Of a DNA stretch of 31,992 nucleotides, positions 646-22,737 are shown piece after piece (the stretch's first letter is position 1; the number at the start of each line of letters is the position of its first letter). Under the pieces are notes generated by a model. That model was not told where the DNA came from. It saw only the letters and a list, made by a program, of their open reading frames with translations, and made no database searches. This DNA is from Nitrospira sp. (lineage in GTDB: Bacteria; Nitrospirota; Thermodesulfovibrionia; Thermodesulfovibrionales; SM23-35). The position numbers and the translations under genes are program-made. The stretch spans positions 1 through 31,992 of the forward strand of contig VGWZ01000001.1 of NCBI GenBank assembly GCA_016873595.1, given 5' to 3'.

Positions 646-671
646 TGAACAACTCTACAAACTTACTCATC
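646..671 (+). promoter_or_regulatory. Candidate ECF promoter copy 1: TGAAC-N17-CATC
   Basis: tgaac(646-650) aactctacaaacttact catc(668-671), then ta-ATG(674). Same motif and spacing as 8234, 17137 and 18945. Confidence 0.65.
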
Positions 672-673
672 TA

Positions 674-1588
674 ATGATTTATATAGAAGAACAATTTAAA
701 GAACTTTTACATCAGTGTTTGGATGGTAAAGAATATGCACTGGAAGAATTTCAGAATACTTTTGGAGAGGATATTTATAATTTTCCCATGAAGGTACATA
801 GACTTGAAAAAGAAATGGCTGCTGAGTTTTACTGTTACTGTTTTGACAAAGGCAGAATTTTTAAGAGATTGAAGACATTTGAAGGAAGGTGTAACCTGAG
901 AACTTATCAGTACTTAGTATTGAGAGACCTTTTTACAGAATGGTTTAGAACTCTCGATTTCACTAAAAATTTTACAGCTTCATTAAATGATCCGATAGAT
1001 CATGATGATGAGACAGAAAAGGGTGTCTTTGTCAAATCAGATGAATCATCCCCGGAAGAAACTTTATTAACTATTCAATCTATGGAAAAATTCGAGACGA
1101 CACTCGGAAAGATTCCGCAGAATGAACGTATATATCTCAAGTTACTGTTGTTTGCAGAGATGGACTTTGAACCTGAAGATATAAGAACAATAGCAAAGAT
1201 ATCAAAAAGAAGCTTCAGGGATGTTTTATATTCTCTGGCTCAACTTGAACAGTCTCTCATACAGAAAAGCGAAAAATATGCACTTAATGAAGAAAATCTT
1301 TATAAAGTTAGCTCTAAAATATTTTTTCACCAAAACGAAATTAGCGGCATTACAGAGTCATCAAATAGAGAAAATAAGGAAATGATACAGAGAATCGAAG
1401 GAAAGATAAAAAAGAGGTTATTACAAAGAAAAAGATACATATCAAAAAAACTTGGTGGTCAAGCAACAGTTTCATACAGAGATATAGCTGGTATTTTAGG
1501 GGTATCTCTTGGAACTATTGCTGCTAACCTCAATAAAGCAAAAGACCTTTTCTTGAAAATGTATCAGGAAGCTGAAAATGAAAAGTAA
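674..1588 (+). CDS. ECF-type (sigma-70 family) RNA polymerase sigma factor with a long insertion in region 4
   Basis: Region-2-like LHQCLDGKEYALEEF...KTFEGRCNLRTYQYLVLRDLFTEWFR. Region 4.1 helix LGKIPQNERIYLKL (aa144-157). Region 4.2 HTH SYRDIAGILGVSLGTIAANLNKAKDLF (aa267-293). Overlaps a zinc-finger anti-sigma gene. No SD upstream. Confidence 0.85.
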   Translation: MIYIEEQFKELLHQCLDGKEYALEEFQNTFGEDIYNFPMKVHRLEKEMAAEFYCYCFDKGRIFKRLKTFEGRCNLRTYQYLVLRDLFTEWFRTLDFTKNFTASLNDPIDHDDETEKGVFVKSDESSPEETLLTIQSMEKFETTLGKIPQNERIYLKLLLFAEMDFEPEDIRTIAKISKRSFRDVLYSLAQLEQSLIQKSEKYALNEENLYKVSSKIFFHQNEISGITESSNRENKEMIQRIEGKIKKRLLQRKRYISKKLGGQATVSYRDIAGILGVSLGTIAANLNKAKDLFLKMYQEAENEK

Positions 1589-2267
1589 CGAAGAAGCATG
1601 TCTTAACAATGAAATCATAGCAGCATATTTAGATAATACACTGTCTCCAAAAGATATGACTGTTGTTGAGGAACATCTCATGTCTTGTGATAAATGTTTA
1701 AGAGAAGCCATTTCTCTAAATGAGATATTATTGAGAATGTCCGAAGGAGAAGCCATTCCTCTCCCTGAAAAGCTTAGAGAAAAAGTAATTTCAACAAATC
1801 GAACTTCAAAGAAAGTAAAATATTTATCTGAATTTGTTATCTCCCTCTCTGAAAAAGCTATATCTTTAATTAAAACCGCTTTTCTTCCAGAAGGTACAGA
1901 ACTCAAAGTATTTGGTAGTCAGTCACCCGCCTTAATTTATCGTGGGAAAGAACTATCAGGGGATGTCCTTAATATTAACCAGAAGATTAATGATATAGAT
2001 ATTAGGATTCAGTTTTATAATACCGAGGGACCAGCCGCCTCTCTAAGAGTCTTATTTCTAAAAGAAAATTTACCTCTCAGCAAAGAGAGGATTACTCTTT
2101 ATAAGAAAGATAGGCTATTGTCCTCAAAGGTAACCTCTAAAGAGGGAAACGTCATATTTCCTGATATAAATTACGGTTATTATCGAATCTCCATACCGGG
2201 TGAAGACATCGAGATGTCCTTTAAAATATTACCGGAAGAAAATAACAAGAGGAAAAATAATGAATAG
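1578..2267 (+). CDS. Zinc-finger (zf-HC2/ZAS) anti-sigma factor, soluble, with a C-terminal Ig/prealbumin-like beta domain
   Basis: N-terminal CLNNEIIAAYLDNTLS...VEEHLMSCDKC (HxxxCxxC). No hydrophobic TM segment. C-terminal ITLYK...VTSKEGNVIFPDINYGYYRISI resembles carboxypeptidase-regulatory-like repeats. Overlaps the sigma stop by 11 nt. Confidence 0.85.
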   Translation: MKSNEEACLNNEIIAAYLDNTLSPKDMTVVEEHLMSCDKCLREAISLNEILLRMSEGEAIPLPEKLREKVISTNRTSKKVKYLSEFVISLSEKAISLIKTAFLPEGTELKVFGSQSPALIYRGKELSGDVLNINQKINDIDIRIQFYNTEGPAASLRVLFLKENLPLSKERITLYKKDRLLSSKVTSKEGNVIFPDINYGYYRISIPGEDIEMSFKILPEENNKRKNNE

Positions 2268-4071
2268 CGACCCAAAATACTTAACCATTTTTCGCCAGGG
2301 GAATATTCATATAGTAGACATGTTTGAACAAAACACCCTTTTCCCTAAAAGGGAGATAACCATAGAAGACAGTTTTATTCAGGATATATGCAGGGATGTT
2401 CAACGTATTACCTTGCTGGCTAACAGACGTTACTTTGACAGCTCTGTCAAACAAGGCGACACATTGGTTTTGGAAGAGCTAAAAAAAGTTGGATCTGTTA
2501 TCTTTTCGCAATTACTCCCTGATGAAGTAAAGACTAATCTGAGAAATTCGAAATCCACCGCTCTCTTTCTAAAACTTGACGAACATCTTATCCACATACC
2601 ATGGGAATTGTGTTTTGACGGAAACGATTTCTTAACAACGAAATTTAGAACAGGCAGGCAGATACTGACTGCGCAAACTTTTCAGAAAAAAGGACAGAGG
2701 CCGCATATTAATCAGGATTCAAAGGTAAAGATGTTGATAATTGTTGATCCTTCCGAAACGCTCAAATATGCTCAAGAAGAAGCAGAGTCACTTTGTTCCA
2801 TCCTTGATAAATCAACTAATATTGACGTTGAGCTTATCGGAGGACAGCAGGCAACTAAAATGAATCTTATTTCTGAGTTAAACGGAAAGGATATTGTTCA
2901 CTTCATAGGCCATTCCTTCTTTGACGTCAGGCATCCAGAAAATAGTGGGTGGGTTTTAAAAAACAGTATTTTAACTCCTTCTGAAATAATTCGCATGGAT
3001 TTACCTCCCTTTATGGTGTTTTCTAATTCATGCCAGGCAACTGCTGCTAAAAATCATCTGATGGGGTATGTGTATGATGAGCAATCTTTTGGTGTAGGTG
3101 GAGGATTTCTCTTATCAGGAGTGCAGAATTTTATAGGACCTTTCTGGATAGTTCATGATGAAGATAGTGTGAGCTTCTCTTCAGATTTCTACAAAGCTTT
3201 TATGGCGGGATCAAGCCTCGGAGAGGCATTGCATATTGCAAAGGAAAATATTATCAGAGAAAAAGGCTGGGACAATCTCCTCTGGGCTTCTTATGTATTA
3301 TACGGTGATCCAACATTGAGAATAAAATCTAATAGGGACAAGGAGAAGGTTGAAGAAAAAATAATTCATAATGATGACTTGGAGTTTAAAACAGTAACTA
3401 CTCCCCAGAGTGATGTCAGCTCATTAAATTATGAATCTTTGGTATATAAAACTAAATCCTCTATCTTCAAACCGATTATAATAAGTTTAGCATTAATCAT
3501 ATTGCTTGGTTTAGGTATTTATATCTTTGCCCCGACTATAATCCATTCTTTTAGCGATTTCATTTCAAATAGGCTGGAAACAAAATGGTATCCCGTCTCT
3601 GGTTCCTGGGGATACAAAGATGGCAAATATACATTAATTACTGAATTCTGGGATGGAACTGCTGTTTCATATTTTGATCAGAAGGAGTTTAGTAATTTTC
3701 AACTCACGATGAATATATATAAAGGCGAAGAGGCATGGCCAGATGCTGCTTTTGGCGTGATAATAAGTTCAAATGTCAAAGGGGATGCATTGATTCTCTA
3801 TTTCAGAGATGGTGAAGCTGGTTGGGTCATTGAAAGAAATGGAGTAAGGGGGGAGATAATAGGAAAAGCATTATCAGATGTTCCAGCGAAAAGTAGACTA
3901 AAGCTTATAGGCGCTAAAGGTTCTTATCAAGCTTACCTGAACGGAATTAAATTGGCAGAGATAGAAAATAACCTCTTTACAAAGGGCAAAATCGGTGTAA
4001 TAATTGAGTCACGCTGGAGAATACCCCCCGGATTTAAAAATATTGAGGTTAAAAAACTGGAGGGTTTATGA
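2260..4071 (+). CDS. CHAT (caspase-like) protease - transmembrane helix - extracytoplasmic DUF1080/ConA-like beta-sandwich
   Basis: Catalytic motifs IVHFIGHS (His 2911-2913) and MVFSNSCQA (Cys 3031-3033). CHAT C-terminal features FIGPFWIVHD and WASYVLYGDP. TM IIISLALIILLGLGIYIFA (~3475-3531). C-domain WYPVSGSW...YQAYLNGIKLAEIENNLFTKGKIGVII. Start moved to ATG 2260 (RBS AGAGGA; overlaps the anti-sigma stop). Confidence 0.88.
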   Translation: MNSDPKYLTIFRQGNIHIVDMFEQNTLFPKREITIEDSFIQDICRDVQRITLLANRRYFDSSVKQGDTLVLEELKKVGSVIFSQLLPDEVKTNLRNSKSTALFLKLDEHLIHIPWELCFDGNDFLTTKFRTGRQILTAQTFQKKGQRPHINQDSKVKMLIIVDPSETLKYAQEEAESLCSILDKSTNIDVELIGGQQATKMNLISELNGKDIVHFIGHSFFDVRHPENSGWVLKNSILTPSEIIRMDLPPFMVFSNSCQATAAKNHLMGYVYDEQSFGVGGGFLLSGVQNFIGPFWIVHDEDSVSFSSDFYKAFMAGSSLGEALHIAKENIIREKGWDNLLWASYVLYGDPTLRIKSNRDKEKVEEKIIHNDDLEFKTVTTPQSDVSSLNYESLVYKTKSSIFKPIIISLALIILLGLGIYIFAPTIIHSFSDFISNRLETKWYPVSGSWGYKDGKYTLITEFWDGTAVSYFDQKEFSNFQLTMNIYKGEEAWPDAAFGVIISSNVKGDALILYFRDGEAGWVIERNGVRGEIIGKALSDVPAKSRLKLIGAKGSYQAYLNGIKLAEIENNLFTKGKIGVIIESRWRIPPGFKNIEVKKLEGL

Positions 4072-4904
4072 GAAGGATTTTAAAAGTAGTATCCCTCATT
4101 TTATTCATGACTTCTCTTTGCCCCTATTATTCGGATGCTTCAACTAAAAACACCATTGCGGTCGTAGATTTTACCAATAATGCAGGCTATAGCAGTCCCT
4201 CTCAGATTGAACGAGTAGCCAGTGATATATTCTCTGTACTTCTGGCTAATACGGGTAAATTCCGGGTTTTGGAGAGAAATAAGGTTGATTCAGTAATAAG
4301 GGAACTACGCTTCAACAAGACAGAATTGGTAGATCCAAAAAAAGCGGTAAAGATGGGAAAGCTTCTCGGAGCTCAATATATTGCAACCGGTTCCATAATG
4401 GAAATGGGTACAGATGTAAAAACCTTTTCAGGTTATGGAGTAACTACAAAGAACATTAATTACACGGTTGCAATCGAGATAAGGATCATTGATGCAGAAA
4501 GGGGAGAGATAATCTATGGAGAAATGACGTCAGATTCAACAACAGTGCGTCAGACACAGAATCTGTCTACAGATCAAGGAGAGGAAATATATAAAAAGCT
4601 GCTTAAGAATGCACTTTCAAAAAGCGTTGATAAACTCATGGATAGTTTTTCCGGACGGTCTCAACGGAAATCCCTGACCAGAGGCAATCAAAAAATTTAC
4701 ATTATGTCTACTCCTGAGGGTGCTGATATAGAGATTAATGGAGCATTTGTTGGGAATACTCCATATGAAGCAACATTATCAGAAGGAGTGCATAAAATAA
4801 AACTGTCCAAGTCCGGCTATTCAACATGGGAAAAGAATGTAAGGGTTTCAGACGGAATGCAGATAAAGGCAACGCTTATAAGTGAAGGGTTTCAGCAAAA
4901 ATGA
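4068..4904 (+). CDS. CsgG/HfaB-family (TolB_N-like fold) exported protein with a C-terminal PEGA domain
   Basis: Signal peptide; TIAVVDFTN, KFRVLERNKVDSVIREL, AVKMGKLLGAQYIATGSI, IRIIDAERGEI. PEGA motif STPEGADIEINGAFVGNTP...HKIKLSKSGY. ATGA overlap with the CHAT gene. Confidence 0.8.
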   Translation: MRRILKVVSLILFMTSLCPYYSDASTKNTIAVVDFTNNAGYSSPSQIERVASDIFSVLLANTGKFRVLERNKVDSVIRELRFNKTELVDPKKAVKMGKLLGAQYIATGSIMEMGTDVKTFSGYGVTTKNINYTVAIEIRIIDAERGEIIYGEMTSDSTTVRQTQNLSTDQGEEIYKKLLKNALSKSVDKLMDSFSGRSQRKSLTRGNQKIYIMSTPEGADIEINGAFVGNTPYEATLSEGVHKIKLSKSGYSTWEKNVRVSDGMQIKATLISEGFQQK

Positions 4905-4941: not shown

Positions 4942-5784
4942 ATGGTTAAGGAATTTATTTTAATTTTTATCTTTGGGTTTATATGTCTTAATGTCGTCCC
5001 GATTTATAAACAGTCTTTAGAAGCAGGTGTGAGGAAAGAAAGAATAATGGTAGTTATTCCTGAAGTTCATTTACGGATGCCTAAAGTCCCTGACCCTGCC
5101 GGAGAAACGGAAATAGTACGTACTCTCATTGAAGCTGGATATAAGCTTGTTGACCAGCAACAGGTTAAAAAAGTCAGGTACAACGATGTATTTGACAAGG
5201 CATGGAAGGGAGATGACGAAGGCGCGCTTAAGATTGCAAGAAAGTATGATGCAGAAATACTGATAGTTGGGCAGGCGTTCAGTGAATTTGCCGGGGTAAC
5301 AAGAGTGCCTTCAATGCGGGGAATGCCAGGCGGCGATCTCATCTCTTGCCGCGCAAGGGTTGAGGCAAAGGCAATAAGGACAGATACAGGGCAGATAATT
5401 GCTACATACGGAGCACATGGATCTGCTGCTGATATAAGTGAAAACATAGCAGGTAAAGGAGCGCTTGCTGATGCAGGTAGACAGGTTGCAGATTACTTCG
5501 TAAAGATGTTTGAAACAGCGTCTCTATCGGTTTCAGGGGCTGGAATAGAAATGATAGTGGAAGGCATAAAGGGATTCTCAGCATTGAATACCCTGAAAAA
5601 GAAATTAACTTCCGTTCAAGGAGTTGATGATGTTGAGGTATTAAATTTTGAAGGAGGTATCGCTACCATAGATGTCTCCTTTAAGGGGAATGCCATGGAA
5701 TTTGCCTCTGCTATGGAAGATAGTGGGATAAAGCTGAAGATAAAAAAACTTGAGGCAACACGAATAAAAGCTGAATACAGGTAA
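4942..5784 (+). CDS. Exported FlgT-middle/CsgG-like fold protein with a C-terminal ferredoxin-like domain
   Basis: N-terminal hydrophobic segment; RIMVVIPE, LIEAGYKLVD, ALKIARKYDAEILIVG, ARVEAKAIRTDTGQIIA. C-terminal IEMIVEGIKGFSALNTLKKKL...VDDVEV. Confidence 0.6.
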   Translation: MVKEFILIFIFGFICLNVVPIYKQSLEAGVRKERIMVVIPEVHLRMPKVPDPAGETEIVRTLIEAGYKLVDQQQVKKVRYNDVFDKAWKGDDEGALKIARKYDAEILIVGQAFSEFAGVTRVPSMRGMPGGDLISCRARVEAKAIRTDTGQIIATYGAHGSAADISENIAGKGALADAGRQVADYFVKMFETASLSVSGAGIEMIVEGIKGFSALNTLKKKLTSVQGVDDVEVLNFEGGIATIDVSFKGNAMEFASAMEDSGIKLKIKKLEATRIKAEYR

Positions 5785-5793
5785 GGGGGAGAT

Positions 5794-6417
5794 ATGTGGT
5801 TATTTAGAACTTTTTTATTTTTTATCGTTCTTTTCTGTTCATTGTCTTTTGTATCAGCACAGCAGAATCTAAGAATAGCAGTGATGAACTTTGAAAATCA
5901 CTCTTCTTATGGTGGTAAAAAATACTCACAAAAAGCTGCTGATTTAATGATGAATGAGCTCACAAAGAGTGGAGTCTTCACTGTTGTTGAAAGAAAAAGG
6001 CTTGATGCATTGTTACAAGAACAGGACTTTCAAAGTTCAGGTAATGTAGATCCTCAGACAGCAGTCAAAATAGGGAAAATGCTTGGTGCTGATATAGTTG
6101 TCCTCGGTACTATTGATAAACTGGGAGTTGGGACTAAAAAAATAAGAGTCGGTGATTCCACAATTACAAGATATAGCGCATTTGCCAATGTCAATATCAG
6201 AGCAGTTAATGTCCAGACAGGTGCAATACTTTTTTCAGATTCAGATGAGGCTTCAGTTGATGCAAAAAGTGCAACTGTCCCTGGTTATGACATGGGTTCA
6301 AATACCCCGTCTGTGGATGGACCGCTCAAGACTACAATTCAAAGGCTGTCTAAGAGGTTTATAGAAACAATGAAAAGTCCTGATAACAGACAAAAAGGGA
6401 AACCGTCAGTCCTGTAA
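5794..6417 (+). CDS. CsgG/HfaB-family exported protein
   Basis: SPI-type signal (VSA-QQ); RIAVMNFEN, SGVFTVVERKRLDALLQEQDF, AVKIGKMLGADIVVLG, IRAVNVQTGAIL. Confidence 0.85.
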   Translation: MWLFRTFLFFIVLFCSLSFVSAQQNLRIAVMNFENHSSYGGKKYSQKAADLMMNELTKSGVFTVVERKRLDALLQEQDFQSSGNVDPQTAVKIGKMLGADIVVLGTIDKLGVGTKKIRVGDSTITRYSAFANVNIRAVNVQTGAILFSDSDEASVDAKSATVPGYDMGSNTPSVDGPLKTTIQRLSKRFIETMKSPDNRQKGKPSVL

Positions 6418-6428
6418 AGGAGGAAAAG

Positions 6429-7703
6429 ATGCTTTATTGTCCCAAATGCAATTTGACATATGAAGAAGGGAAAAAGTTTTGTAAGGAATGTGGAGGGAAG
6501 CTTGTTGTAAAAGAAGAAGCTGATTCGGTTTCAACCGAAAGTCATGAAAAACCTGAAGTAGCATTTGTTCATGAGACAAAAATCATAGATGAAAAGAAAA
6601 AATACTGTCCTTCATGTGGCATAGAATATACCTCTGATAAAAAGTTTTGTAAAACCTGTGGAGTTGTGCTTTCCAATACACCAAAAAAAGATTCTCAAAC
6701 AGAATCTGTAAAAAATGCAACCACTGCTTTTAAATTTACTCCAACCCCTCCAAAACCTTCATTTGAGACTGTATCTGACATCCCCTCAAGTTCAAAGGTT
6801 AAATCAATACTCCGGAAAAAGAAGAAGCTCCTGAAGAATGGTCAAAAAATGATGACCCTCATAGGTAATCTGGAAAAGCAAAAAGGTCTTATTTCAGAAG
6901 ATGCACTGGCTATCACCATGAGACCTTATCAGATGAAGCTTGAGGAAATAGAAAAGGAGATAAGCGGAATTAATGATTTTTTGAATGAACTTCAGAAAAA
7001 AGTCACTGTTGAGATAGATGGACTCGAAAAAGAAGTTCTCCCGTTTAAAAACCGCCTTTCTGAACTAAAGACTATACGAAAAGCAAAAGGACTTACATCC
7101 AGCGATTTTAACAGGTTTAAAAAAGAGCCAAAACAGGCATCAAAGAGACTCGACAGCAAGATAAAAAAGAGAAAGAAAATAATGCAACTATTACTTCCAT
7201 CTACTACCGGAAAGCTTGAAGGAGCTGGTGCATCTCTCTACATGAAAGTAGCTGCTGGGATTGTTATCCTTGCTGTTTTAGGGGTTAGCGGCTATTTTGG
7301 ATATAAATATTTTAATAAAAAAGATAAAGATGAAATTACATTTCCAGACAAAGGAACTCCACAAGCTTTGCCTGAAGAAGAAATTAGAAAGGTTTTTGAA
7401 ACCATTAAGAAGGCGAATTTATCTGAAGATATAAATCTTTTTATGTCTTGCTATTCACCGTCTTACCCAACTCATGAGGACAAAAAGAACCAAACAGTTA
7501 AAAACTGGCAAGATTATGATTTTGCTGACCTTTCTTTTACTGTAAGAGATCTCATTGTTAATCAAAACACTGCAGAGGTCACCGTTGATTGGCAGATTAA
7601 CGCTCGTTCTGCAAAAACAGGAGAGACACAGACATTTAACATTACAAATAATGTAGTCTTGCAAAAAGAGTCGGGACAGTGGAAAATCACTGCTTTGAAA
7701 TAA
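6429..7703 (+). CDS. Double zinc-ribbon + coiled-coil + single TM + NTF2/SnoaL-like extracytoplasmic domain protein
   Basis: CPKC..FCKECG and CPSC..FCKTCG; Lys/Glu-rich helical middle; TM VAAGIVILAVLGVSGYFGY. C-terminal EEIRKVFETIKKANLSEDINLFMSCYS...NNVVLQKESGQWKITAL. Confidence 0.75.
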   Translation: MLYCPKCNLTYEEGKKFCKECGGKLVVKEEADSVSTESHEKPEVAFVHETKIIDEKKKYCPSCGIEYTSDKKFCKTCGVVLSNTPKKDSQTESVKNATTAFKFTPTPPKPSFETVSDIPSSSKVKSILRKKKKLLKNGQKMMTLIGNLEKQKGLISEDALAITMRPYQMKLEEIEKEISGINDFLNELQKKVTVEIDGLEKEVLPFKNRLSELKTIRKAKGLTSSDFNRFKKEPKQASKRLDSKIKKRKKIMQLLLPSTTGKLEGAGASLYMKVAAGIVILAVLGVSGYFGYKYFNKKDKDEITFPDKGTPQALPEEEIRKVFETIKKANLSEDINLFMSCYSPSYPTHEDKKNQTVKNWQDYDFADLSFTVRDLIVNQNTAEVTVDWQINARSAKTGETQTFNITNNVVLQKESGQWKITALK

Positions 7704-7721
7704 CTTCAGGAGGGACTTGGA

Positions 7722-8219
7722 ATGAGCGATTTTTTAGATAAGGTTAAAGGTAAAGTTGACGAGGGAATCAGCAAAATAAGCTCAAAGTCGAAAGAAGCAA
7801 TTGAACTTGCGCAATTAAGAAATCAACTCAGGCACCTTGGAAAAGAGAAAGAGGAAAAGATTAACGCATTGGGAAGGTTAGCGTATGATATGCTCCGCAA
7901 AGATGAATACAATGAGCAGAGGCTTAAAGAGCTTTATCTTCATATAAACGAAGTTGATCGTCAGATAGTGAATGTTGAGGAAGAAATAAAAAAGGTTCAG
8001 GCGATGTCAGCATCTGAAGATATAGGTATTGTCGCGCGATGTGAGTGTGGAGCAGGTATTACCGCCAACCAGAAATTTTGTGCGTCTTGTGGAGGGGATG
8101 TGAAAGCAGTTACTATGCAGCCGTCGGCGCCTCAAGAGGTAATGAAGCGTTGTTCAACCTGTGGTGCAGAAATCAAAGAAACAGCAAAATTCTGTGGAAA
8201 ATGCGGAGCAAAACAGTAA
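7722..8219 (+). CDS. Soluble coiled-coil + double zinc-ribbon protein
   Basis: N-terminal FLDKVKGKVDEG...LGRLAYDM helical region; CECG..FCASCG and CSTCG..FCGKCG; RBS GGAGGG. Confidence 0.8.
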   Translation: MSDFLDKVKGKVDEGISKISSKSKEAIELAQLRNQLRHLGKEKEEKINALGRLAYDMLRKDEYNEQRLKELYLHINEVDRQIVNVEEEIKKVQAMSASEDIGIVARCECGAGITANQKFCASCGGDVKAVTMQPSAPQEVMKRCSTCGAEIKETAKFCGKCGAKQ

Positions 8220-8233
8220 GGTATGAAAATAGA

Positions 8234-8259
8234 TGAACGGAAATATAGATTTTGGCATC
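8234..8259 (+). promoter_or_regulatory. Candidate ECF promoter copy 2: TGAAC-N17-CATC
   Basis: tgaac(8234-8238) ggaaatatagattttgg catc(8256-8259), intergenic and upstream of RBS GGAGGT and ATG 8295. Confidence 0.7.
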
Positions 8260-8294
8260 AAATAGATGTATAAGTTTATTTATTGGAGGTGACT

Positions 8295-8861
8295 ATGTTT
8301 TGTCCAGAATGTGGTGCAAAGAATGAAGAAGGAGCAAGGTTTTGTGAAGGGTGTGGAAAAGAGTTAAAAGGAGTAAAAATAGTACAACCAGTTGGAGCGA
8401 GAGCCGCAGCGGCAGTTATGCCGATTACTACTATTAAGAGGCCTTTGCCAATTGTATTAATAGCTACGTATTTAGCAATTACTGGAATACTATTGGTAGC
8501 TATTTCATTTATTATTGAATTCACGATAATCGCTGTTCCGAAAAAAATAGAAGCAGCTATGGATTTTACAAGTTTTGTCAGTGAGACTGGATTATCTCTT
8601 TTTAAGATTGCCTTAATCACTGAGATATACTTTTTCTTTAGTTTGCTCTGTATTGCTTCAGCTTACGGGCTTTGGAATTTTACTTCTTGGGGTAGACTTC
8701 TCACAATAATTGTAGCTGCAATCGGATTTATTGAATCTCTGATTACTTTGTTCATAACCAATACTGGTGGCATTTTTATAGCGATTGTGACCATGCTTGC
8801 CTCTATTGCTATAGTTTTATACCTGATATTATCTGATGTTGGTCATAGATTTTCGGAATAA
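8295..8861 (+). CDS. Zinc-ribbon multi-pass (about 4 TM) membrane protein
   Basis: MFCPECGAKNEEGARFCEGCG followed by four hydrophobic segments; start set at the ATG after GGAGGT. Confidence 0.8.
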   Translation: MFCPECGAKNEEGARFCEGCGKELKGVKIVQPVGARAAAAVMPITTIKRPLPIVLIATYLAITGILLVAISFIIEFTIIAVPKKIEAAMDFTSFVSETGLSLFKIALITEIYFFFSLLCIASAYGLWNFTSWGRLLTIIVAAIGFIESLITLFITNTGGIFIAIVTMLASIAIVLYLILSDVGHRFSE

Positions 8862-8889
8862 CCGGCTTCTTTACAGAGGAGGATATATT

Positions 8890-9570
8890 ATGATTAACAG
8901 AAGGTTATTAAATATATTTATTATAGTCATTTCAATACTATCTTTTTCTACAATATTTGTTGTTGGTACAAGCTATAGCTTTATTTTTGGTGAAACAGCA
9001 GAAGACTACTTCCCACCTGAGGGAACAACTAAAATTTTTGAATATACAACAGGTAAGAAGCCTACAGTTTATGCAACGGTTGGTAAAGCGACGTCTTTTC
9101 AGGGCAAAAAGACAATCCCGATTTTCAATAAGGCTGTTATAGTTGGAGAGAAATCAAAAGAACATACTTCTTATTATGAAGTTTCAGAGTCTTTTATAAA
9201 ACATGTAGGAAGTACTTACACAGAGGAAAACAAGAACATAGTATATGATCCTCCATATACTGAATGGCGTTTTCCAATGAAAGAAGGGATTAGCTGGGAA
9301 GAAAATTTTGTAAGAAGAACTACTGTTCAAAGAAACGAAAAAATACAAAGAATTAAAAGTAAATTTACTGTATTAGGTAAAGAAAAAATATGGGTACCAG
9401 CAGGAAGTTTTAATTGTTGGAAGATAGAATATATAGTTGAAGAAAACGGTATCACCAAAGGAAAAGGAATAGAATGGATAAGTAAAGGATTAGGAACTAT
9501 AAAAAATGTTGTAAAATTTCCAGATGAAAAAGAATCTGAAAAAGTTCTAAAAAGTTACTCCCGTAAATAG
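8890..9570 (+). CDS. Exported DUF3108-like/TapB-like beta-rich protein
   Basis: N-terminal signal/TM; FTVLGKEKIWVPAGSFNCWKIEY and WISKGLGTIK motifs; RBS GGAGGA before ATG 8890. Confidence 0.6.
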   Translation: MINRRLLNIFIIVISILSFSTIFVVGTSYSFIFGETAEDYFPPEGTTKIFEYTTGKKPTVYATVGKATSFQGKKTIPIFNKAVIVGEKSKEHTSYYEVSESFIKHVGSTYTEENKNIVYDPPYTEWRFPMKEGISWEENFVRRTTVQRNEKIQRIKSKFTVLGKEKIWVPAGSFNCWKIEYIVEENGITKGKGIEWISKGLGTIKNVVKFPDEKESEKVLKSYSRK

Positions 9571-9596
9571 AAAGTAAGAGAGAGGGTAATACAATT

Positions 9597-10337
9597 GTGA
9601 ATATTATTAAAAGATACTTGATAAAATTCAGCAGAAAATCATTTTTAATTATTTTTTGCCTAATAACGTTTTTAGTCTCATCCTGCATTGAAGTAAAACA
9701 TAAAATGACAATCAATAGAGATGGCTCAGGGAATGCATCTATTGAATTTTTAATACAGAAAGAGTTTGCACCTATGTTAGTTCAGGAAATAAAAAAAGAT
9801 ATCCCAAAAGGATGGAAAATTGCCGAGGAAAAAGAAAAAGATGGTAAATATTTGTTAGTTCTTAAAACAGAGTTCAATAATATTGGGGCATTAGAGGATA
9901 GTGACGTAAAATATACTTTTTCTTCAACTGAAAAGGGCCTTTTTAAAGAGTCTTATTATATCAATATAAAACAAAAGATAAGCAGAAGCGATCCCTTCCC
10001 CTATGAATTCATACTTAAAGTTCCAGGAACTATAGATACAACTAATGGAACGAAAATCTCATCTAATGAAGTCAAATGGAATTTTATGGGTCTTCAGAGG
10101 GGCGCTGAAATGTATGTAGAGTCTTCTGCTCTAAGGACTTACATTTTCATCATATTTGGCATCGTAGGGCTTTTGGTTCTCTTAGGGATAGCATTTATTA
10201 TTAAAATATCAATAAAACGAAGAGCACCTCAAATGGTATCTATTAGAAAAAGTATTTTTTGTACGCAATGTGGGAATGAAAATCCTATAAATGCCTCTTT
10301 CTGTACAAATTGTGGGATCAAAATTGATAGTAATTAA
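9597..10337 (+). CDS. LppM-like (lipo)protein with a C-terminal TM anchor and cytoplasmic zinc ribbon
   Basis: Lipobox-like LVSSC; MTINRDGSG and LKVPGTIDTTNG...VKW motifs; TM IFIIFGIVGLLVLLGIAFII; FCTQCGNENPINASFCTNCG. Confidence 0.65.
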   Translation: MNIIKRYLIKFSRKSFLIIFCLITFLVSSCIEVKHKMTINRDGSGNASIEFLIQKEFAPMLVQEIKKDIPKGWKIAEEKEKDGKYLLVLKTEFNNIGALEDSDVKYTFSSTEKGLFKESYYINIKQKISRSDPFPYEFILKVPGTIDTTNGTKISSNEVKWNFMGLQRGAEMYVESSALRTYIFIIFGIVGLLVLLGIAFIIKISIKRRAPQMVSIRKSIFCTQCGNENPINASFCTNCGIKIDSN

Positions 10338-10632
10338 TCGTACATTAATTATTACGTTATCACTTATATTCTTCCTATTATGTGTGGATTTATCGCGTAA
10401 ACCAGAACATCAGTTTAGCGCCAATTTTTTAATTTTTTCTATTGAACAATATCGTACATATGTATCACCTCGGCTTAGTGGTATTGTAGTCTGTAAGTTC
10501 AAACCAAGCTGTTCATCTTATACAATAACAGCTTTACGGGAATACGGATCTCTCAAAGGATCAGCGATGTCAATTAATCGCTTATTGAAGTGTTCACCTT
10601 TATCATCTGAACATGGTGCCGATTCTCCATGA
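10324..10632 (+). CDS. yidD: YidD-like membrane protein insertion efficiency factor with an extra N-terminal hydrophobic segment (start uncertain: TTG 10324 or ATG 10291)
   Basis: IEQYRTYVSP...CKFKPSCSSY...ALREYGSLKG...RLLKCSP matches the YidD (Haemolytic domain) signature with its three Cys. Confidence 0.8.
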   Translation: MIVINRTLIITLSLIFFLLCVDLSRKPEHQFSANFLIFSIEQYRTYVSPRLSGIVVCKFKPSCSSYTITALREYGSLKGSAMSINRLLKCSPLSSEHGADSP

Positions 10633-10660
10633 CTGCCACTTATTTATAAGAGGAGGAAAC

Positions 10661-11650
10661 ATGAAAAAATATTTTCTGTGTTTGGTCAGTCTTATTATTT
10701 TCATGTCGCAGTGTCAATTCGGGTTCGCAAGCAACACCAGAGAAAAAGCACCCTCCTTAGAAGTGCTCAGTGGTTCCAGCAAGGAAATTTACCGCCTGAT
10801 CGATTTTAAGGGTAAAGTTATATTCGTCAATTTCTGGGCTACATGGTGCCAGTCATGCCAAGAGGAGATGCCTTTCATTCAAGGTCTTTACAATCGTTTC
10901 AGAAATGACACGCTACTTCAGATTGTTAGCATTATCTATAGAGATGATTATCAGAAAGCTCTTGAATACAGGAATCAACATAATTATGATTATCCTTTTT
11001 TCTTAGATAGCAATAATAAGACAGCGATTTCCTATGGCGTGACAGGCGTGCCAGAGACTTATATTATAGACAAAAAAGGATTTGTGAGGAAGAAAGTAAT
11101 CGGGCCATTTAATTGGAGTTCTAAGGAGTCGATTTCGCTGATATCAGGTTTAGTCAATGAAACTACAGAGGTAACGGTTATGGCGCCCTCGCCTCAGACA
11201 GGCTACAGGGACGATCAACCTTTCCGGGCATGTGGAATTGCATGTGGTTCTTTTATATTCATAATTATAGCCATTTTTATACTGAACATTGCCCTCTTGG
11301 TGTGGGTTGCCAAAGATGCGAAGAATAGGGGAATGGGAAGTCCAGTTGGCTGGATTTTTCTGATATTATTCACCGGTGTAATTGGCCTTATTATTTATTT
11401 GTTCAGCAGACCAAAAGGCGAACTTGTTATTTGTGATGTTTGCAAGAACAAAAAGTTTAGAGTACAAAAAATTTGTCCACATTGTGGAAACTCCTCAAGT
11501 CCAATGGATGTTAAAGCTGATAAATATGATAAGCCAAAAACACAGATTGGTAGTGGTACAGGACCACTTCATAAGTTTTGTACGCAATGTGGTTCAAAAA
11601 ACGAGGCGAATAGTAAATTTTGTATTGATTGTGGTGAAAAGCTTGAATAA
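10661..11650 (+). CDS. TlpA/ResA-like thiol-disulfide oxidoreductase fused to PLDc_N-like TM segments and two zinc ribbons
   Basis: VNFWATWCQSC (Cys 10847 and 10856), YGVTGVPETYIIDKKG; WVAKDAKNRGM...GWIFLILFTGVIGLIIYLFSRPKG; CDVC..CPHC and FCTQC..FCIDC; RBS AGGAGG. Confidence 0.8.
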   Translation: MKKYFLCLVSLIIFMSQCQFGFASNTREKAPSLEVLSGSSKEIYRLIDFKGKVIFVNFWATWCQSCQEEMPFIQGLYNRFRNDTLLQIVSIIYRDDYQKALEYRNQHNYDYPFFLDSNNKTAISYGVTGVPETYIIDKKGFVRKKVIGPFNWSSKESISLISGLVNETTEVTVMAPSPQTGYRDDQPFRACGIACGSFIFIIIAIFILNIALLVWVAKDAKNRGMGSPVGWIFLILFTGVIGLIIYLFSRPKGELVICDVCKNKKFRVQKICPHCGNSSSPMDVKADKYDKPKTQIGSGTGPLHKFCTQCGSKNEANSKFCIDCGEKLE

Positions 11651-12928: not shown

Positions 12929-13936
12929 ATGAAGAAAAAAGAGTTAGTTACACCTAAAATCTCTGAAGAAAACGAAACTGTGAAAATGGTTCTTTCAAAC
13001 AGAATAACTCTTATTTTATTGTTTAGCTTGATGCTGATTTGTATCAATTATACACATGCCATTGACAATAGCATTGTGGCAGAGGTTGGGAAATACAAGA
13101 TAACAACTGAGGAATACTGGAAGACCTATGATAATGTCATGCGCTTTTACAGGGACATTTACAAAGATAAGTTTGATGAGGAGATGGAAAAGAAAATGAA
13201 GCTGAAAGAAAAGGTTCTTGACTCCTTGATAAATGACAAGGTGCTTCTCATAGCTGCTGAAGATGCCGGGATCAGCGTGAGTGATAAAGAAATTCAAAAT
13301 GCAATAACACGAGAACCAGCTTTTATGAAGGAAGGGCGATTCAACGAACAAATTTTTCTAAATAGATTAAAACTGAACAGGATTACTGTTGAGGAATATA
13401 AGAGGTTAAAACGTCAGGAGCTAACTATTTCGAAAATGAAGAACTATATAACTAAAAATACGGCAAATGCTCAATTTAAAGAGGAAGAAATAAGAAAATT
13501 CATTGATAAATATAAGACTAAGGTGAGAATTATTATTAATCCAAATCAAACATACACAATAGAAACTTCTTCGGCTTTTGACAAATCACAAATAGCAAGG
13601 AATCAAATAGAGCTTTTAGGTCAGGCCCTGGATCAATTCAGATTGTACGTTGGGAGATATCCAACAACAGGTGAAGGGTTACAAGCACTCATGAGAAATC
13701 CCGGGATTCGAAAATGGGAGGGCCCATACCTTAAAAAAGAGATTCCAATGGATCCATGGGGAAGGCCATATATTTATGTCAGCCCTGGTAAACATGGGGA
13801 TTACGATTTATTTAGCTTGGGGAAAGATGGTATACCTGGTGGTACGGGTGAGAATGAAGATATCACAAGCTGGGGAGGTAGCACAGGATATTATGACGGA
13901 GAGCAGAAAAGAAGAAAACCATTGTCACCAATGTAA
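12929..13936 (+). CDS. SurA/PpiD N-terminal chaperone domain fused to a type II secretion major pseudopilin (GspG) globular domain
   Basis: Signal-like segment; IVAEVGKYKIT...VLDSLINDKVLLIAAEDAGISVSDKEIQNAITREPAFMKEGRFN (SurA_N). ALDQFRLYVGRYPTTGEGLQAL...GPYLKKEIPMDPWGRPYIYVSPGKHGDYDLFSLGKDGIPGGTGENEDITSW (T2SS-G). No G|FTLIE prepilin motif. Confidence 0.85.
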   Translation: MKKKELVTPKISEENETVKMVLSNRITLILLFSLMLICINYTHAIDNSIVAEVGKYKITTEEYWKTYDNVMRFYRDIYKDKFDEEMEKKMKLKEKVLDSLINDKVLLIAAEDAGISVSDKEIQNAITREPAFMKEGRFNEQIFLNRLKLNRITVEEYKRLKRQELTISKMKNYITKNTANAQFKEEEIRKFIDKYKTKVRIIINPNQTYTIETSSAFDKSQIARNQIELLGQALDQFRLYVGRYPTTGEGLQALMRNPGIRKWEGPYLKKEIPMDPWGRPYIYVSPGKHGDYDLFSLGKDGIPGGTGENEDITSWGGSTGYYDGEQKRRKPLSPM

Positions 13937-13986: not shown

Positions 13987-15447
13987 ATGAAAAAGATGCT
14001 ATTTCTAATAATAATTTTCCTGCTTATTACATCAGGTTGTGGGCTTCGAATACCTGGTACAGGAGGCGATTGTATTAACGTCAAAAAAATTGTTCCTGCT
14101 GAGGTTAACGTCGCAAAATATAAGAAGATTGCAGTTATTGATTTTGATGGTAAGGGCGGAAGGAATATAGCTGAGTGGATGGAGACAGAGCTTCAAAATG
14201 CACAAGTTGACGGTAAGCCTTATTTTGAGATAATAACGAGGTCACAATTGCTGAAATTACTCGGTGAGCAAATGCTTAGTCTTAAAGGATTTGTTGATCC
14301 TAATACTGCAGCACGGATTGGAAAAATATCAGGCACTCAAGCTATTGTTACTGGTACCGTCACTGCCTATCGCCATGATAAAGGTGTATATTATCGACAG
14401 GTAACAAGAGGCAGGGGAAAACAACAATATGTTGAAAACGTTCCCTGCGAGGTTCAATCTGCTTTTGTGCAATTCACAACCTCTTTTATAGACTCCACCA
14501 GTGGCAAGATTTTAGCAAGAACATCAGGTGAAGGTCAGTACATAGGTGATTCATGTGAAGGGATGGATGGATTAGCCGGACTCCTTATGGATTCTATTTT
14601 CAAATCAGTAAAAAAACAGACTGACAATGTGGTTAGAGGTCCTATAGATGTGCCAGAAAGGGTGATTAACAAAGCGTCTTTAATGGCGATTCAGCAATTC
14701 GTTAAAAAAATAGCTCCGCATTACCAGGATGTATGCATAATTCTAAAAAAAGATGATACTGAAGGAATAGACATCAGTTTTAAATCGAAGCCCGAAAATG
14801 AGAAACAGATCGAGAATTATTATGAGATAGGATATAAGTACGCAATAAGAGGACAGTGGGAAGATGCCATAACACAATGGGATAAGGTTCTTTCTATCGA
14901 TCAGAACAGACCTGCTGCAATATATAACATTGGAATCGCAAATGAAATGATGGGCGATTTATTTCTTGCTGAAAAGCTGTTTAAAAGGGTAACTGAAATA
15001 AAGGCTGATGATGTCTTTTTTGATGCCCTTGCAAGGGTGAGAAAATCAATAGAGCAACAGGAAATAATATGTAAACAAACAGGAAAAGGTTGTTACAGAC
15101 CCCCAACTCAAGCAGAGACTAAAACAAATAGAATAATGGCTCCTGCTAACGAAAAAGTTATTGTACCCTCAGAAATAGAAAGAGACTCTGCAGTAATCAA
15201 AGAAACCGTAGTAGCCAGAGCTAAACCTGATAGTAAAGCAAAATCAGTGGGAAAGATAAGTGCTGGCTCAAAAGCTGAAAGACTTGATACCAAAGGTGAC
15301 TGGATAAAAATAAGAGTTTTTAATGGTGAAAAATCAATAGAAGGATGGGTGCATAAATGTTATATAGAGGGTGAGGACATCAAATGTCCTGTCAAGAAAA
15401 TTAAAGAGAAAAAGCAAGAGGGAAAAGTTCCTGTTTCACCAATGTAG
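13987..15447 (+). CDS. Lipoprotein with CsgG-like domain, TPR region and C-terminal bacterial SH3 domain
   Basis: ITSGC lipobox; KKIAVIDF...AARIGKISGTQAIVTG; TPR-like GQWEDAITQWDK...AAIYNIGIANEMMGDLFLAEKLFKR; SH3-like ARAKPDSKAKSVGKI...KGDWIKIR...EGWVHK. Confidence 0.75.
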   Translation: MKKMLFLIIIFLLITSGCGLRIPGTGGDCINVKKIVPAEVNVAKYKKIAVIDFDGKGGRNIAEWMETELQNAQVDGKPYFEIITRSQLLKLLGEQMLSLKGFVDPNTAARIGKISGTQAIVTGTVTAYRHDKGVYYRQVTRGRGKQQYVENVPCEVQSAFVQFTTSFIDSTSGKILARTSGEGQYIGDSCEGMDGLAGLLMDSIFKSVKKQTDNVVRGPIDVPERVINKASLMAIQQFVKKIAPHYQDVCIILKKDDTEGIDISFKSKPENEKQIENYYEIGYKYAIRGQWEDAITQWDKVLSIDQNRPAAIYNIGIANEMMGDLFLAEKLFKRVTEIKADDVFFDALARVRKSIEQQEIICKQTGKGCYRPPTQAETKTNRIMAPANEKVIVPSEIERDSAVIKETVVARAKPDSKAKSVGKISAGSKAERLDTKGDWIKIRVFNGEKSIEGWVHKCYIEGEDIKCPVKKIKEKKQEGKVPVSPM

Positions 15448-21617: not shown

Positions 21618-21846
21618 ACATCCTCCCTTTCACACATTTTCTCTTTTAAAAATATAACATTTTATAATTCATAATACAAGTGCTGCTATATTGTTTTCTG
21701 TGTATTTTTGGAATGTCGATAAAGTACTCAAATATATTTGATTGTTGATACCAAAAGGATACTCGCAAATACAGATATATGTTTCACTATTAAGGTAAAA
21801 TAGTAAAAGGATGATTTTAATTCGTTAAGAAAGGTTTATTTTTTTG

Positions 21847-22737
21847 ATGAATGACCATATTGATAAATTTATTAAGCATCTTGAGCTTGAAAGGGCTGCA
21901 TCAGCCCATACATTACGGTCTTACAGGAAAGACCTTGAAGAATTTTTTCAATATGTAAAAACAAAACCTGAAGATATAGACATAATAGACGTGCGAGGGT
22001 TTATTGCAGAACAGATTAAAAGTGGACTTAAAAAAAGTACTGTGGGAAGAAGGCTTGCGAGCATAAGGTCTTTTTTTAAGTTTCTCCATAGAGAAGGTTA
22101 CCAAAAAACAAACCCTGCGAAATTTGTTTCTAACCCAAAGGTTTCAAAACTTCTCCCAAGATTTCTCTCTATTGATGATATATTTTCTCTTATTGAAAAA
22201 CCCGAGGGGATAGGATTGATACCTGCAAGAGACAAGTCTGTTCTTGAACTCCTTTATTCAAGTGGCCTGAGGGTAAGCGAGCTCTCAGGGCTCAATATAG
22301 ATGACATCAATATTAAGGAAGGATTGGTAAAGGTTAGGGGAAAAGGGAAGAAAGAGAGAATAGTTCCTGTTGGTTCAAAGGCGATTGATGCACTCAAATC
22401 ATATATCGTAGAGAAAATTCTGCTGAAAAGTAAAAATAAGGCATTGTTCCTCAATAGAGCAGGGGCAAGATTATCAGACAGAGGGGTAAGACGGATAGTG
22501 GTTAAATATGCAAGGATGGTGGGTGTGGCCGGACAGATAGGACCTCATACTATGAGACATACATTTGCAAGCCATCTCCTTCAGGCTGGTGCGGATCTCA
22601 GGGTGATACAGGAACTTCTGGGCCATTCATCACTTTCGACAACACAGAAGTATACACATCTGGACATTACACATTTAATGGATGTTTATGACAAGGCACA
22701 CCCTTTTGCAAAAGAAGAAGATAATGATGTATCATAA
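21847..22737 (+). CDS. xerC: Tyrosine recombinase XerC
   Basis: SAHTLRSYRKDL, YSSGLRVSEL, VRGKGKKERIVP, PHTMRHTFASHLLQAGADLRVIQELLGHSSLSTTQKYTH; synteny with hslVU. Confidence 0.9.
   Translation: MNDHIDKFIKHLELERAASAHTLRSYRKDLEEFFQYVKTKPEDIDIIDVRGFIAEQIKSGLKKSTVGRRLASIRSFFKFLHREGYQKTNPAKFVSNPKVSKLLPRFLSIDDIFSLIEKPEGIGLIPARDKSVLELLYSSGLRVSELSGLNIDDINIKEGLVKVRGKGKKERIVPVGSKAIDALKSYIVEKILLKSKNKALFLNRAGARLSDRGVRRIVVKYARMVGVAGQIGPHTMRHTFASHLLQAGADLRVIQELLGHSSLSTTQKYTHLDITHLMDVYDKAHPFAKEEDNDVS

Follow-up and report, generated by a model that had tools for sequence, protein, structure and literature searches.

The stretch of DNA analysed here, referred to as the window, comprises 31,992 nucleotides of a Nitrospira sp. 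genome (assembly GCA_016873595.1, contig VGWZ01000001.1, positions 1 to 31,992), and carries near its beginning three genes on the forward strand that encode a sigma factor of the extracytoplasmic function (ECF) type, a soluble zinc-finger anti-sigma factor and a membrane protein with a caspase-like CHAT domain. An earlier inspection of the letters alone, hereafter the sequence-only reading, described them as overlapping and translationally coupled, and the open reading frames and their starts bear this out: the sigma gene extends from 674 to 1588 (304 aa), the anti-sigma gene from 1578 to 2267 (229 aa) and the CHAT gene from 2260 to 4071 (603 aa), with overlaps of 11 nt (ATG 1578 / TAA 1586-1588) and 8 nt (ATG 2260 / TAG 2265-2267). 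We propose that the three products probably constitute a one-receptor, protease-gated ECF sigma switch. The features of the trio are as follows.

646..671, + strand: ECF-type promoter-like motif TGAAC-N17-CATC, directly 5' of the sigma start
674..1588, + strand: ECF-type sigma factor, 304 aa (TIGR02937, PRK12513, Sigma70_r4_2)
1578..2267, + strand: soluble zinc-finger (CHCC) anti-sigma factor, 229 aa (zf-HC2, no transmembrane helix, AlphaFold2 model)
1923..1946, + strand: segment SPALIYRG of the anti-sigma factor, aa 116-123, with R122 (nt 1941-1943) as candidate P1 residue
2260..3309, + strand: CHAT domain (caspase-like, clan CD), predicted to be cytoplasmic, with His214 at nt 2899-2901 and Cys258 at nt 3031-3033
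3472..3543, + strand: single transmembrane helix, aa 405-428 (Kyte-Doolittle maximum 2.84; AlphaFold2 helix 403-439)
3592..4059, + strand: predicted extracytoplasmic ConA-like beta-sandwich (CBM66 / DUF1080-like by structure matches), presumed sensor

The start of the CHAT gene at ATG 2260 fits the N-termini of all the homologues, and for this reason the alternative GTG at 2200 was rejected; at its other end the gene overlaps the next one, at 4068, by 4 nt (ATGA). Shine-Dalgarno-like sequences (GGAAG/AGAGGA/GGAGG) precede the three downstream starts, i.e., those of the anti-sigma gene, the CHAT gene and the gene at 4068, and none was seen before the sigma start at 674. The motif TGAAC-N17-CATC immediately precedes the sigma gene both in the window and in the related locus L001, with one-base variants in L002, L004 and L013, and in all of these the sigma ATG lies 2-8 nt past a -10-like element (CATC/CCTC/TCTC-TA; window 646-690, L001 172-208). 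Because of this proximity and of the missing Shine-Dalgarno sequence, the sigma mRNA may be leaderless, and it may also be autoregulated. A zinc-ribbon gene farther downstream is preceded by the same motif, at corresponding positions in the window (8234), L001 (7777) and L002 (8651). This distribution is consistent with autoregulation from an ECF promoter and with a regulon of nearby genes, those for envelope and zinc-ribbon membrane proteins.

The three proteins of the operon

The product of the first gene is recognised as an ECF (group IV) sigma-70 factor, with its sigma-2/sigma-4 regions, by the curated model TIGR02937 (46.9 bits against a cut-off of 42.9); the alignment with PRK12513 covers aa 9-197, and Sigma70_r4_2 is detected at aa 267-290. 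Its size departs from the compact two-domain form of approx. 200 aa, since its 304 residues include a second helix-turn-helix (HTH). Residues 1 to ~200 align end to end with the whole 200-aa sigma factors of sister clades and comprise a degenerate region-4-like HTH (examined in window positions 1154-1588, aa 160-304); they are followed by a C-terminal extension of ~105 aa, with a coiled-coil-like stretch and then the second, canonical HTH. These alignments favour a C-terminal extension or a duplication over a split of region 4. Sigma factors of the long form are limited to the closer clade, which includes the Leptospiraceae loci L075, L082 and L086. In L012, a single open frame (6015-6989) matches both the sigma and the anti-sigma models, and could be a natural fusion or an assembly frameshift.

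The second protein matches zf-HC2 (5e-8, 33.3 bits against a cut-off of 22.2) with the motif HLMSCDKC at aa 33-40, which places it among the class I zinc-binding anti-sigma (ZAS) factors with an HxxxCxxC motif in an N-terminal helical domain. No transmembrane helix is present, given that every 19-residue Kyte-Doolittle window scores 1.2 or less; the sequence-only reading was correct in both respects, and without a hydrophobic segment the protein does not belong to the membrane-spanning anti-sigma factors regulated by site-1 and site-2 proteases, i.e., by regulated intramembrane proteolysis (RIP). An RsrA-type match is weak (25.6 bits) and below its cut-off. The AlphaFold2 model, computed from 60 sequences (mean predicted local distance difference test, pLDDT, of 85), shows a helical domain at aa 11-74 (helices 11-18, 24-36, 38-55 and 64-74), followed by an all-beta region at aa 82-219 that ends in a sandwich of the prealbumin/carboxypeptidase-regulatory-like type; no sensor domain of its own is apparent. 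Fold searches with this model returned only generic Ig, prealbumin and carboxypeptidase-regulatory-like folds and unnamed zinc-finger proteins; Csx30 was not matched among solved structures, nor was any named PatU. When the sequences of the three proteins were compared with those of solved structures, the sole match was a weak one to RsiW for the zinc finger, and neither the CHAT protein nor the C-terminal region of the anti-sigma factor has a model in NCBIfam. In one clade (L007 2598-3452, L008 5122-5994, L009 5120-5986, and L014-L017) the anti-sigma factor has an N-terminal addition of ~70 aa that holds a second HxxxCxxC-type motif, giving two tandem anti-sigma-like zinc fingers.

Alignment of 66 anti-sigma sequences, with a median pairwise identity of 21%, revealed that conservation is concentrated in the zinc ligands (C8, H33, C37 and C40, kept in 82-92% of the sequences), in a few positions of the C-terminal sandwich and in one arginine, R122. 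This residue is Arg in 66 of the 66 sequences (within two alignment columns); apart from the zinc site and the C-terminal domain, no other residue is kept in every member. A hydrophobic residue stands before it in 65/66, and G, S, N or A after it in 55/66. The sequence-only reading had named SPALIYRG as the candidate cleavage segment, located in a linker that joins the zinc finger to an Ig domain; the segment stands by virtue of its invariant arginine, but its location does not, since in the model R122-G123 forms the turn of a beta-hairpin (strands 108-121 and 124-137, pLDDT ~72) within the all-beta region. A description of aa 82-123 as an amphipathic helix followed by a linker was likewise dropped, as the model gives beta strands. 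It seems rather probable, from the conservation of this motif, that the anti-sigma factor is cleaved at R122.

The third protein contains a CHAT domain (PF12770, 7e-32, 111 bits) with the two motifs of the His-Cys dyad of clan CD, HFIGH at aa 214 (His214, His218) and NSC with its cysteine at aa 258; His214 is taken as the dyad histidine on the basis of conservation, not by mapping onto a solved active site. Neither H214 nor C258 varies among 62 homologues, an argument in favour of an active enzyme. The AlphaFold2 model (62 sequences as input, mean pLDDT 80) has a protease domain predicted with confidence (aa 1-350), then a long helix (403-439) and finally a beta-sandwich (450-599). The protease domain has a caspase-like fold whose closest solved structures are Csx29 of the type III-E Craspase (Foldseek E 8e-13 to 7zoq_A) and separase (~1e-12), and separins also head its matches among the Swiss-Prot models.

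Another important aspect of this protein is its topology. No N-terminal signal peptide was found, and 67 of 89 family members have exactly one transmembrane helix after the end of the CHAT domain and none before it. Some relatives carry in addition an N-terminal class III nucleotide cyclase, in the order cyclase, CHAT, transmembrane helix, TPR and CsgG-like domain. Since the ATP-dependent cyclase lies on the same side as CHAT and modules of periplasmic type on the opposite one, these features together make a strong inference that the CHAT domain is cytoplasmic. The sequence-only reading placed both catalytic residues on the N-terminal side of a single transmembrane helix, which holds, and the CHAT domain in the cytoplasm, which these features support.

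The outer domain was named DUF1080/ConA-like in the sequence-only reading, and this holds for the fold and not for the sequence profile. The C-terminal 165 aa gave no Pfam match up to E = 10, neither to DUF1080 (PF06439) nor to CBM66, but the modelled sandwich has template modelling (TM) scores of 0.78-0.84 to PF06439/DUF1080 clusters among the Atlas structure matches, and of 0.79 (by target) to the CBM66 module of B. subtilis levanase (4azz). The terms 'lectin-like' and 'DUF1080/ConA-like' should accordingly be read as descriptions of a modelled fold. A protein search returned 82 CHAT relatives, which are 30-60% identical over the N-terminal 350 aa and variable after the transmembrane helix: this outer part is ConA-like in only four proteins, and elsewhere consists of TPR (as in HetF), SnoaL-like, 'TolB-like' or CsgG-like modules. 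Given that the outer sensor is swappable in this way, the glycan or peptidoglycan ligand put forward in the sequence-only reading is a guess.

Conservation of the trio

In seven of seven annotated homologous loci, genes for a sigma-like protein of ~300 aa and a zf-HC2 protein of ~230-290 aa directly precede the CHAT gene. A scan of species-representative genomes detected at least 525 CHAT relatives, and the best 80 loci were examined with hidden Markov models (HMMs) built from eight sigma/anti-sigma pairs. Among the 77 of these loci with enough upstream DNA, the family anti-sigma gene lies immediately upstream of the CHAT gene in 62, and elsewhere in the locus in 3 more. An ECF sigma gene precedes the anti-sigma gene in 42 of the 62 loci according to the HMM, and Pfam identified a sigma factor in all of the 10 further upstream reading frames tested. 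The sequence-only reading would have been undermined if anti-sigma factors of this family rarely stood beside CHAT genes, which is not the situation encountered.

The records that carry the module bear the labels of about ten phyla: Planctomycetota (Scalindua), Desulfobacterota-type 'Deltaproteobacteria', Binatia, Methylomirabilota, Nitrospirota, Omnitrophota, Margulisiibacteriota, Chloroflexota and Leptospiraceae. Four metagenome-assembled genomes labelled Klebsiella pneumoniae, Enterobacteriaceae or Hydrothermarchaeota archaeon (L014, L018, L028 and L056) have a module ~40% identical to Binatia/Deltaproteobacteria-type loci, and their labels look wrong. At a finer scale, none of 13 other sampled genomes of the window's own family has the module, and its distribution therefore appears patchy. 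The sequencing runs that hold the window sequence are lake-water metagenomes, all of DNA; RNA runs were not found.

The reciprocal test started from the anti-sigma profile in a sample of 401 Nitrospirota genomes. The full-length anti-sigma factor occurs in 10 of them, and in 10/10 the CHAT gene is adjoining; the zinc finger alone was matched in many more genomes, and in the 20 such loci checked the adjoining CHAT gene was found in none (0/20). From the side of the protease, 12 of the 401 genomes have a strong family CHAT, of which 10 are the same genomes that have the full-length anti-sigma factor, and the other two include one at a contig edge; weaker CHAT matches of other subfamilies are not accompanied by such an anti-sigma factor. 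Because of the 10/10 against 0/20 and of the result from the CHAT side, the beta region of the anti-sigma factor appears to be specific to this protease family, and no other comparative result argues as strongly for an interaction between the two. With the 7/7 and 62/77 loci described above, the trio is almost certainly a functional unit, in agreement with the sequence-only reading, and it is very probable that the CHAT protein controls the sigma factor through the anti-sigma factor.

Genomic context

The genes that follow the trio encode exported proteins, and their order is the same in the three closest relatives (L001, L002 and L004).

4068..4904, + strand: CsgG/LpoB-like exported protein with a C-terminal PEGA domain (CsgG 1.4e-21, PEGA 3e-15)
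4942..5784, + strand: exported protein, function unassigned (weak LipL46 match, 1e-8, far below the cut-off)
5794..6417, + strand: second CsgG/LpoB/TolB_N-like exported protein (CsgG 2e-28; homologues in 31 related loci)

The first of them is translationally coupled to the CHAT gene through the ATGA overlap, and the same gene follows the CHAT gene in the three relatives; homologues of 4942-5784 also occupy the same position there. Weak LipL46/LIC10124 matches were obtained among the window proteins and at first hinted at a relative of Leptospira, but the identity of sampled genome loci to named records gives Nitrospirota as the phylum: two loci are identical to records labelled Nitrospiraceae and Nitrospirae, and one to the assembly of the closest relative, which places the window in a Nitrospirota metagenome-assembled genome outside the Nitrospiraceae. 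A fourth CsgG-like protein, with TPR and SH3 domains, is encoded at 13987-15447 and has homologues in 21 related loci. A link that the sequence-only reading overlooked is that in 27 related loci the CHAT protein itself contains, by gene fusion, a CsgG-like domain in its periplasmic part, and in 25 such a domain is encoded by a separate neighbouring gene; because of these fusions, it is suggested that the CsgG-like proteins of the window are partners of the receptor outside the cytoplasm.

Positions 6429-11650 hold a cluster of membrane proteins with zinc ribbons (DZR, Zn_Ribbon_1) on their predicted cytoplasmic tails. Clusters of this kind are also present after the CHAT gene in L001, L002, L008 and L009, where they adjoin genes for an M48 peptidase, LemA and RDD proteins. 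When the strict pattern CxxC-N8-18-CxxC was used, loci with the long sigma form had it in 17/116 downstream genes versus 1/70 upstream genes; only 4/28 of these loci have a zinc-ribbon cluster, and for that reason it is treated as a feature of a subclade, apparently outside the core module. A YidD paralogue is encoded at 10291-10632 (9e-20), and the gene after it (10613-11650) specifies a thioredoxin/AhpC-like protein that is joined to a PLDc_N segment and to zinc ribbons. Farther on, at 12929-13936, a single open reading frame joins a SurA-like N-terminal chaperone domain (7e-34) to a type II secretion GspG domain (4e-37). The likely regulon is one of the cell envelope and comprises CsgG/LpoB-like and SurA-like proteins, thioredoxin, M23 peptidase and YidD. 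A XerC/D-type integrase gene is located at 21844-22737, just beyond the island.

The sequence-only reading held that the module is independent of CRISPR, and the gene content supports this. There are no cas genes in the window and none within 6 kb in the loci of seven annotated relatives. The source genome (2.0 Mb in 305 contigs, 95% complete) has one CHAT gene only, gave no match to RAMP (Cas7-11) at that completeness, and carries Cas1 on two unrelated contigs of small size (C286, C271) and nowhere else. A search of the genome for SAVED was also empty, although the model matched no control genome either, so that its absence is not shown. The association with Cas7-11/gRAMP and a CRISPR array that marks a type III-E Craspase is thus not seen here, and the model of the anti-sigma factor does not match a substrate of the Csx30 type. 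No defence genes were found in the window, and the PADLOC models gave one weak match to BovA and nothing meaningful; on this account the module was not filed as a defence system.

Proposed switch, alternatives and known systems

In the resting state, the soluble anti-sigma factor would hold the sigma factor through its N-terminal helical domain, a role established for class I zinc anti-sigma domains, while its C-terminal beta region, found only next to this CHAT family, would be both the handle and the substrate for the membrane protein. The outward sensor of ConA/CBM66 fold probably acts together with the co-encoded CsgG/LpoB-like exported proteins, and a signal from outside would activate the cytoplasmic CHAT domain across the single transmembrane helix. 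CHAT would then cut the anti-sigma factor after Arg122 (Tyr-Arg|Gly) at the tip of the beta-hairpin, general proteases would clear the fragments, and the freed sigma factor would transcribe its own operon from TGAAC-N17-CATC as well as nearby genes whose products are envelope and zinc-ribbon membrane proteins. The arrangement of the genes, the reasoning on topology, the conserved catalytic dyad, the genomic linkage in both directions, the invariant arginine and the lack of linked cas genes come from the analysis itself; the binding, the cleavage, the signal and the regulon are the parts of this scheme that we infer.

Several observations weigh against this scheme. In 12 of the 77 loci no anti-sigma gene was detected nearby, and hence the CHAT protease can serve other roles. 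The arginine at which cleavage is proposed belongs to a beta-hairpin modelled with moderate confidence (pLDDT ~72), and from the model it could be a docking or structural residue instead of the scissile site. Related genomes are not independent of each other, and the counts given above (62/77, 10/10 against 0/20) overstate their weight and show a pattern, not a probability. Zinc anti-sigma factors are, in addition, able to respond to oxidants unaided.

The latter property leads to an unlikely alternative, which nonetheless is the least improbable of those considered: CHAT would be a target or effector of the sigma factor that processes other substrates, such as envelope factors or the cytoplasmic zinc-ribbon tails of the membrane proteins encoded with it, and the anti-sigma factor would be released by its own redox chemistry. 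The CHCC/HxxxCxxC zinc site with its weak, below-cut-off RsrA-type match, the zinc-ribbon membrane proteins clustered downstream in the long-sigma clade (17/116 versus 1/70) and the twelve loci without an adjacent anti-sigma gene would all agree with it. It leaves unexplained, though, why the anti-sigma beta region and its invariant arginine occur only with CHAT, which calls for an interaction, and the zinc-ribbon cluster is confined to a small subclade while the trio is present in many phyla. An interaction is also what a partner switch would require, in which the CHAT protein binds the C-terminal domain of the anti-sigma factor and strips it from the sigma factor, or tethers the complex, without proteolysis; the exclusive co-occurrence speaks for interaction and not for cleavage, and the CHAT domain of DdvA was found in a resting state, its dyad mutants showing no phenotype in unstimulated cells (PMC11506125). 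We consider this quite unlikely in view of the His-Cys dyad, invariant in 62 diverse homologues, and of the hydrophobic-Arg-small motif, similar to the mapped HetF site, that every anti-sigma factor has.

The remaining alternatives concern the substrate and the purpose of the protease. That it acts on the sigma factor, with the ~105-aa C-terminal extension as an inhibitory pro-sequence as in the processing of sporulation pro-sigma factors, would agree with the co-occurrence of the long sigma form and the closer CHAT relatives; most of the family loci, however, have sigma factors of ~200 aa without extension and still keep the anti-sigma factor and CHAT, and the extension holds the best-scoring region-4 HTH, so that its removal would probably inactivate the sigma factor. 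This makes the proposal highly improbable. As for purpose, the module could, in the manner of DdvA/DdvS or the CRISPR-linked protease/sigma circuits, be an anti-phage sensor that sets off a defensive or abortive response, considering that the CHAT-sigma circuits characterised so far are all linked to defence, that the distribution is patchy (0/13 in the same family) and that an integrase gene is present at 21844-22737. The single weak PADLOC match, the lack of defence genes found in the window and a likely regulon of envelope proteins leave such a function with a low probability; it is in any case a matter of purpose and not of mechanism, and would be compatible with the protease-gated switch.

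ECF sigma factors rank as the third large pillar of signal transduction in bacteria, and the known routes for their release are intramembrane proteolysis, partner switching, phosphorylation and redox sensing. If our proposal is true, a caspase-like receptor-protease that cuts a soluble anti-sigma factor would be a further and very direct route across the membrane, present in at least 525 species-level genomes, including anammox Planctomycetota, Nitrospirota, Omnitrophota, Desulfobacterota-type bacteria, Binatia and Leptospiraceae, and its swappable sensors may make it a general, engineerable input device. A broader claim, on which we are evenly divided, is that these modules form a widespread and undescribed class of transmembrane signalling, with a single-pass caspase-like receptor, interchangeable sensors, CsgG-like partners and a one-step release of the ECF sigma factor at a hairpin-tip arginine, in which neither CRISPR nor intramembrane proteolysis takes part. 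A full-text search of the literature, outside whose reach many subscription papers lie, found no description of an ECF sigma factor, a soluble ZAS anti-sigma factor and a membrane CHAT protein as one system.

The classical systems that employ RIP, DegS/RseP-RseA and PrsW/RasP-RsiW, have membrane-spanning anti-sigma factors that need site-1 and site-2 proteases. They share with the module the proteolytic destruction of an anti-sigma factor upon a signal from outside; here, in contrast, one receptor-protease would relay the signal and cut the soluble anti-sigma factor directly. A review reported CHAT genes near ECF54 sigma factors, for which proteolytic regulation was proposed (PMC8999054); ECF54 has carboxypeptidase or subtilase neighbours and is described as lacking an anti-sigma factor, unlike the window module with its clear zf-HC2 anti-sigma factor, and this assignment was not adopted for the window sigma factor.

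Among the circuits in which a dedicated protease acts on a soluble inhibitor, the type III-E Craspase (Cas7-11/Csx29/Csx30/Csx31/CASP-sigma) is similar in that a CHAT protein, the TPR-CHAT protease Csx29, cuts Csx30, a soluble inhibitor of the ECF-like CASP-sigma (PMC10028731). Csx30 is cut in its C-terminal part and binds the sigma factor by its N-terminal part, and Csx29 is the best structure match of the window CHAT. This circuit differs in being triggered in the cytoplasm by crRNA-guided binding of target RNA, and Csx29 cuts after Met or Leu; the window module, for its part, has no Cas7-11/RAMP, no N-terminal TPR and no Csx30-like fold, and has the architecture of a transmembrane receptor. 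In type III CRISPR, the SAVED-Lon protease CalpL cuts the anti-sigma factor CalpT of the sigma factor CalpS (as cited in 10.1101/2023.06.23.546230 and 10.1101/2024.05.08.593097). A dedicated protease there also frees an ECF-like sigma factor by cutting a soluble anti-sigma factor, but the protease is of the Lon type, is activated by cyclic oligoadenylate and has no membrane receptor. DdvA of Myxococcus xanthus combines a zinc anti-sigma domain, a transmembrane segment and a periplasmic TPR-CHAT in one protein (PMC11506125, PMC6061681). DdvS/DdvA is thus another signalling unit across the membrane with an ECF sigma factor, a CHCC zinc anti-sigma domain and CHAT; however, the active site of DdvA is incomplete, self-cleavage was proposed to precede RseP-type intramembrane proteolysis, and in the window the anti-sigma factor is soluble and CHAT is a separate protein, predicted to be cytoplasmic.

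The closest working analogue, by architecture, membrane side and site preference, would be HetF/PatU3, a precedent that the sequence-only reading overlooked and a likeness drawn from published descriptions. In Anabaena sp. PCC 7120, HetF is a membrane protein of CHAT-TM-TPR architecture (PMC8406250), and shares with the window protein a membrane-anchored, N-terminal CHAT domain, one transmembrane helix and an outer repeat or sensor domain. Its substrate PatU3 is soluble and sequesters the regulator HetZ, and HetF cuts it at Tyr116-Arg117|Ser118, where mutation of R117 blocks cleavage (PMC9457339). This cut after Arg in Tyr-Arg|Ser resembles the invariant hydrophobic-Arg-Gly/Ser of the anti-sigma factors (Tyr-Arg-Gly in the window), the candidate cleavage site, and separase also cuts after Arg (PMC11506125). 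The two systems differ in that PatU3 is not an anti-sigma factor and no sigma factor takes part in the circuit, the CHAT region of HetF, at aa 1-555, exceeds that of the window protein in length, and the descriptions of hetF and patU3 do not present the two genes as an operon. If our proposal is true, the module would belong with the systems of protease-gated sigma release and with the HetF-like membrane CHAT proteases, and it would bring HetF in cyanobacterial development, the Craspase in CRISPR immunity and DdvA in myxobacteria under one principle.

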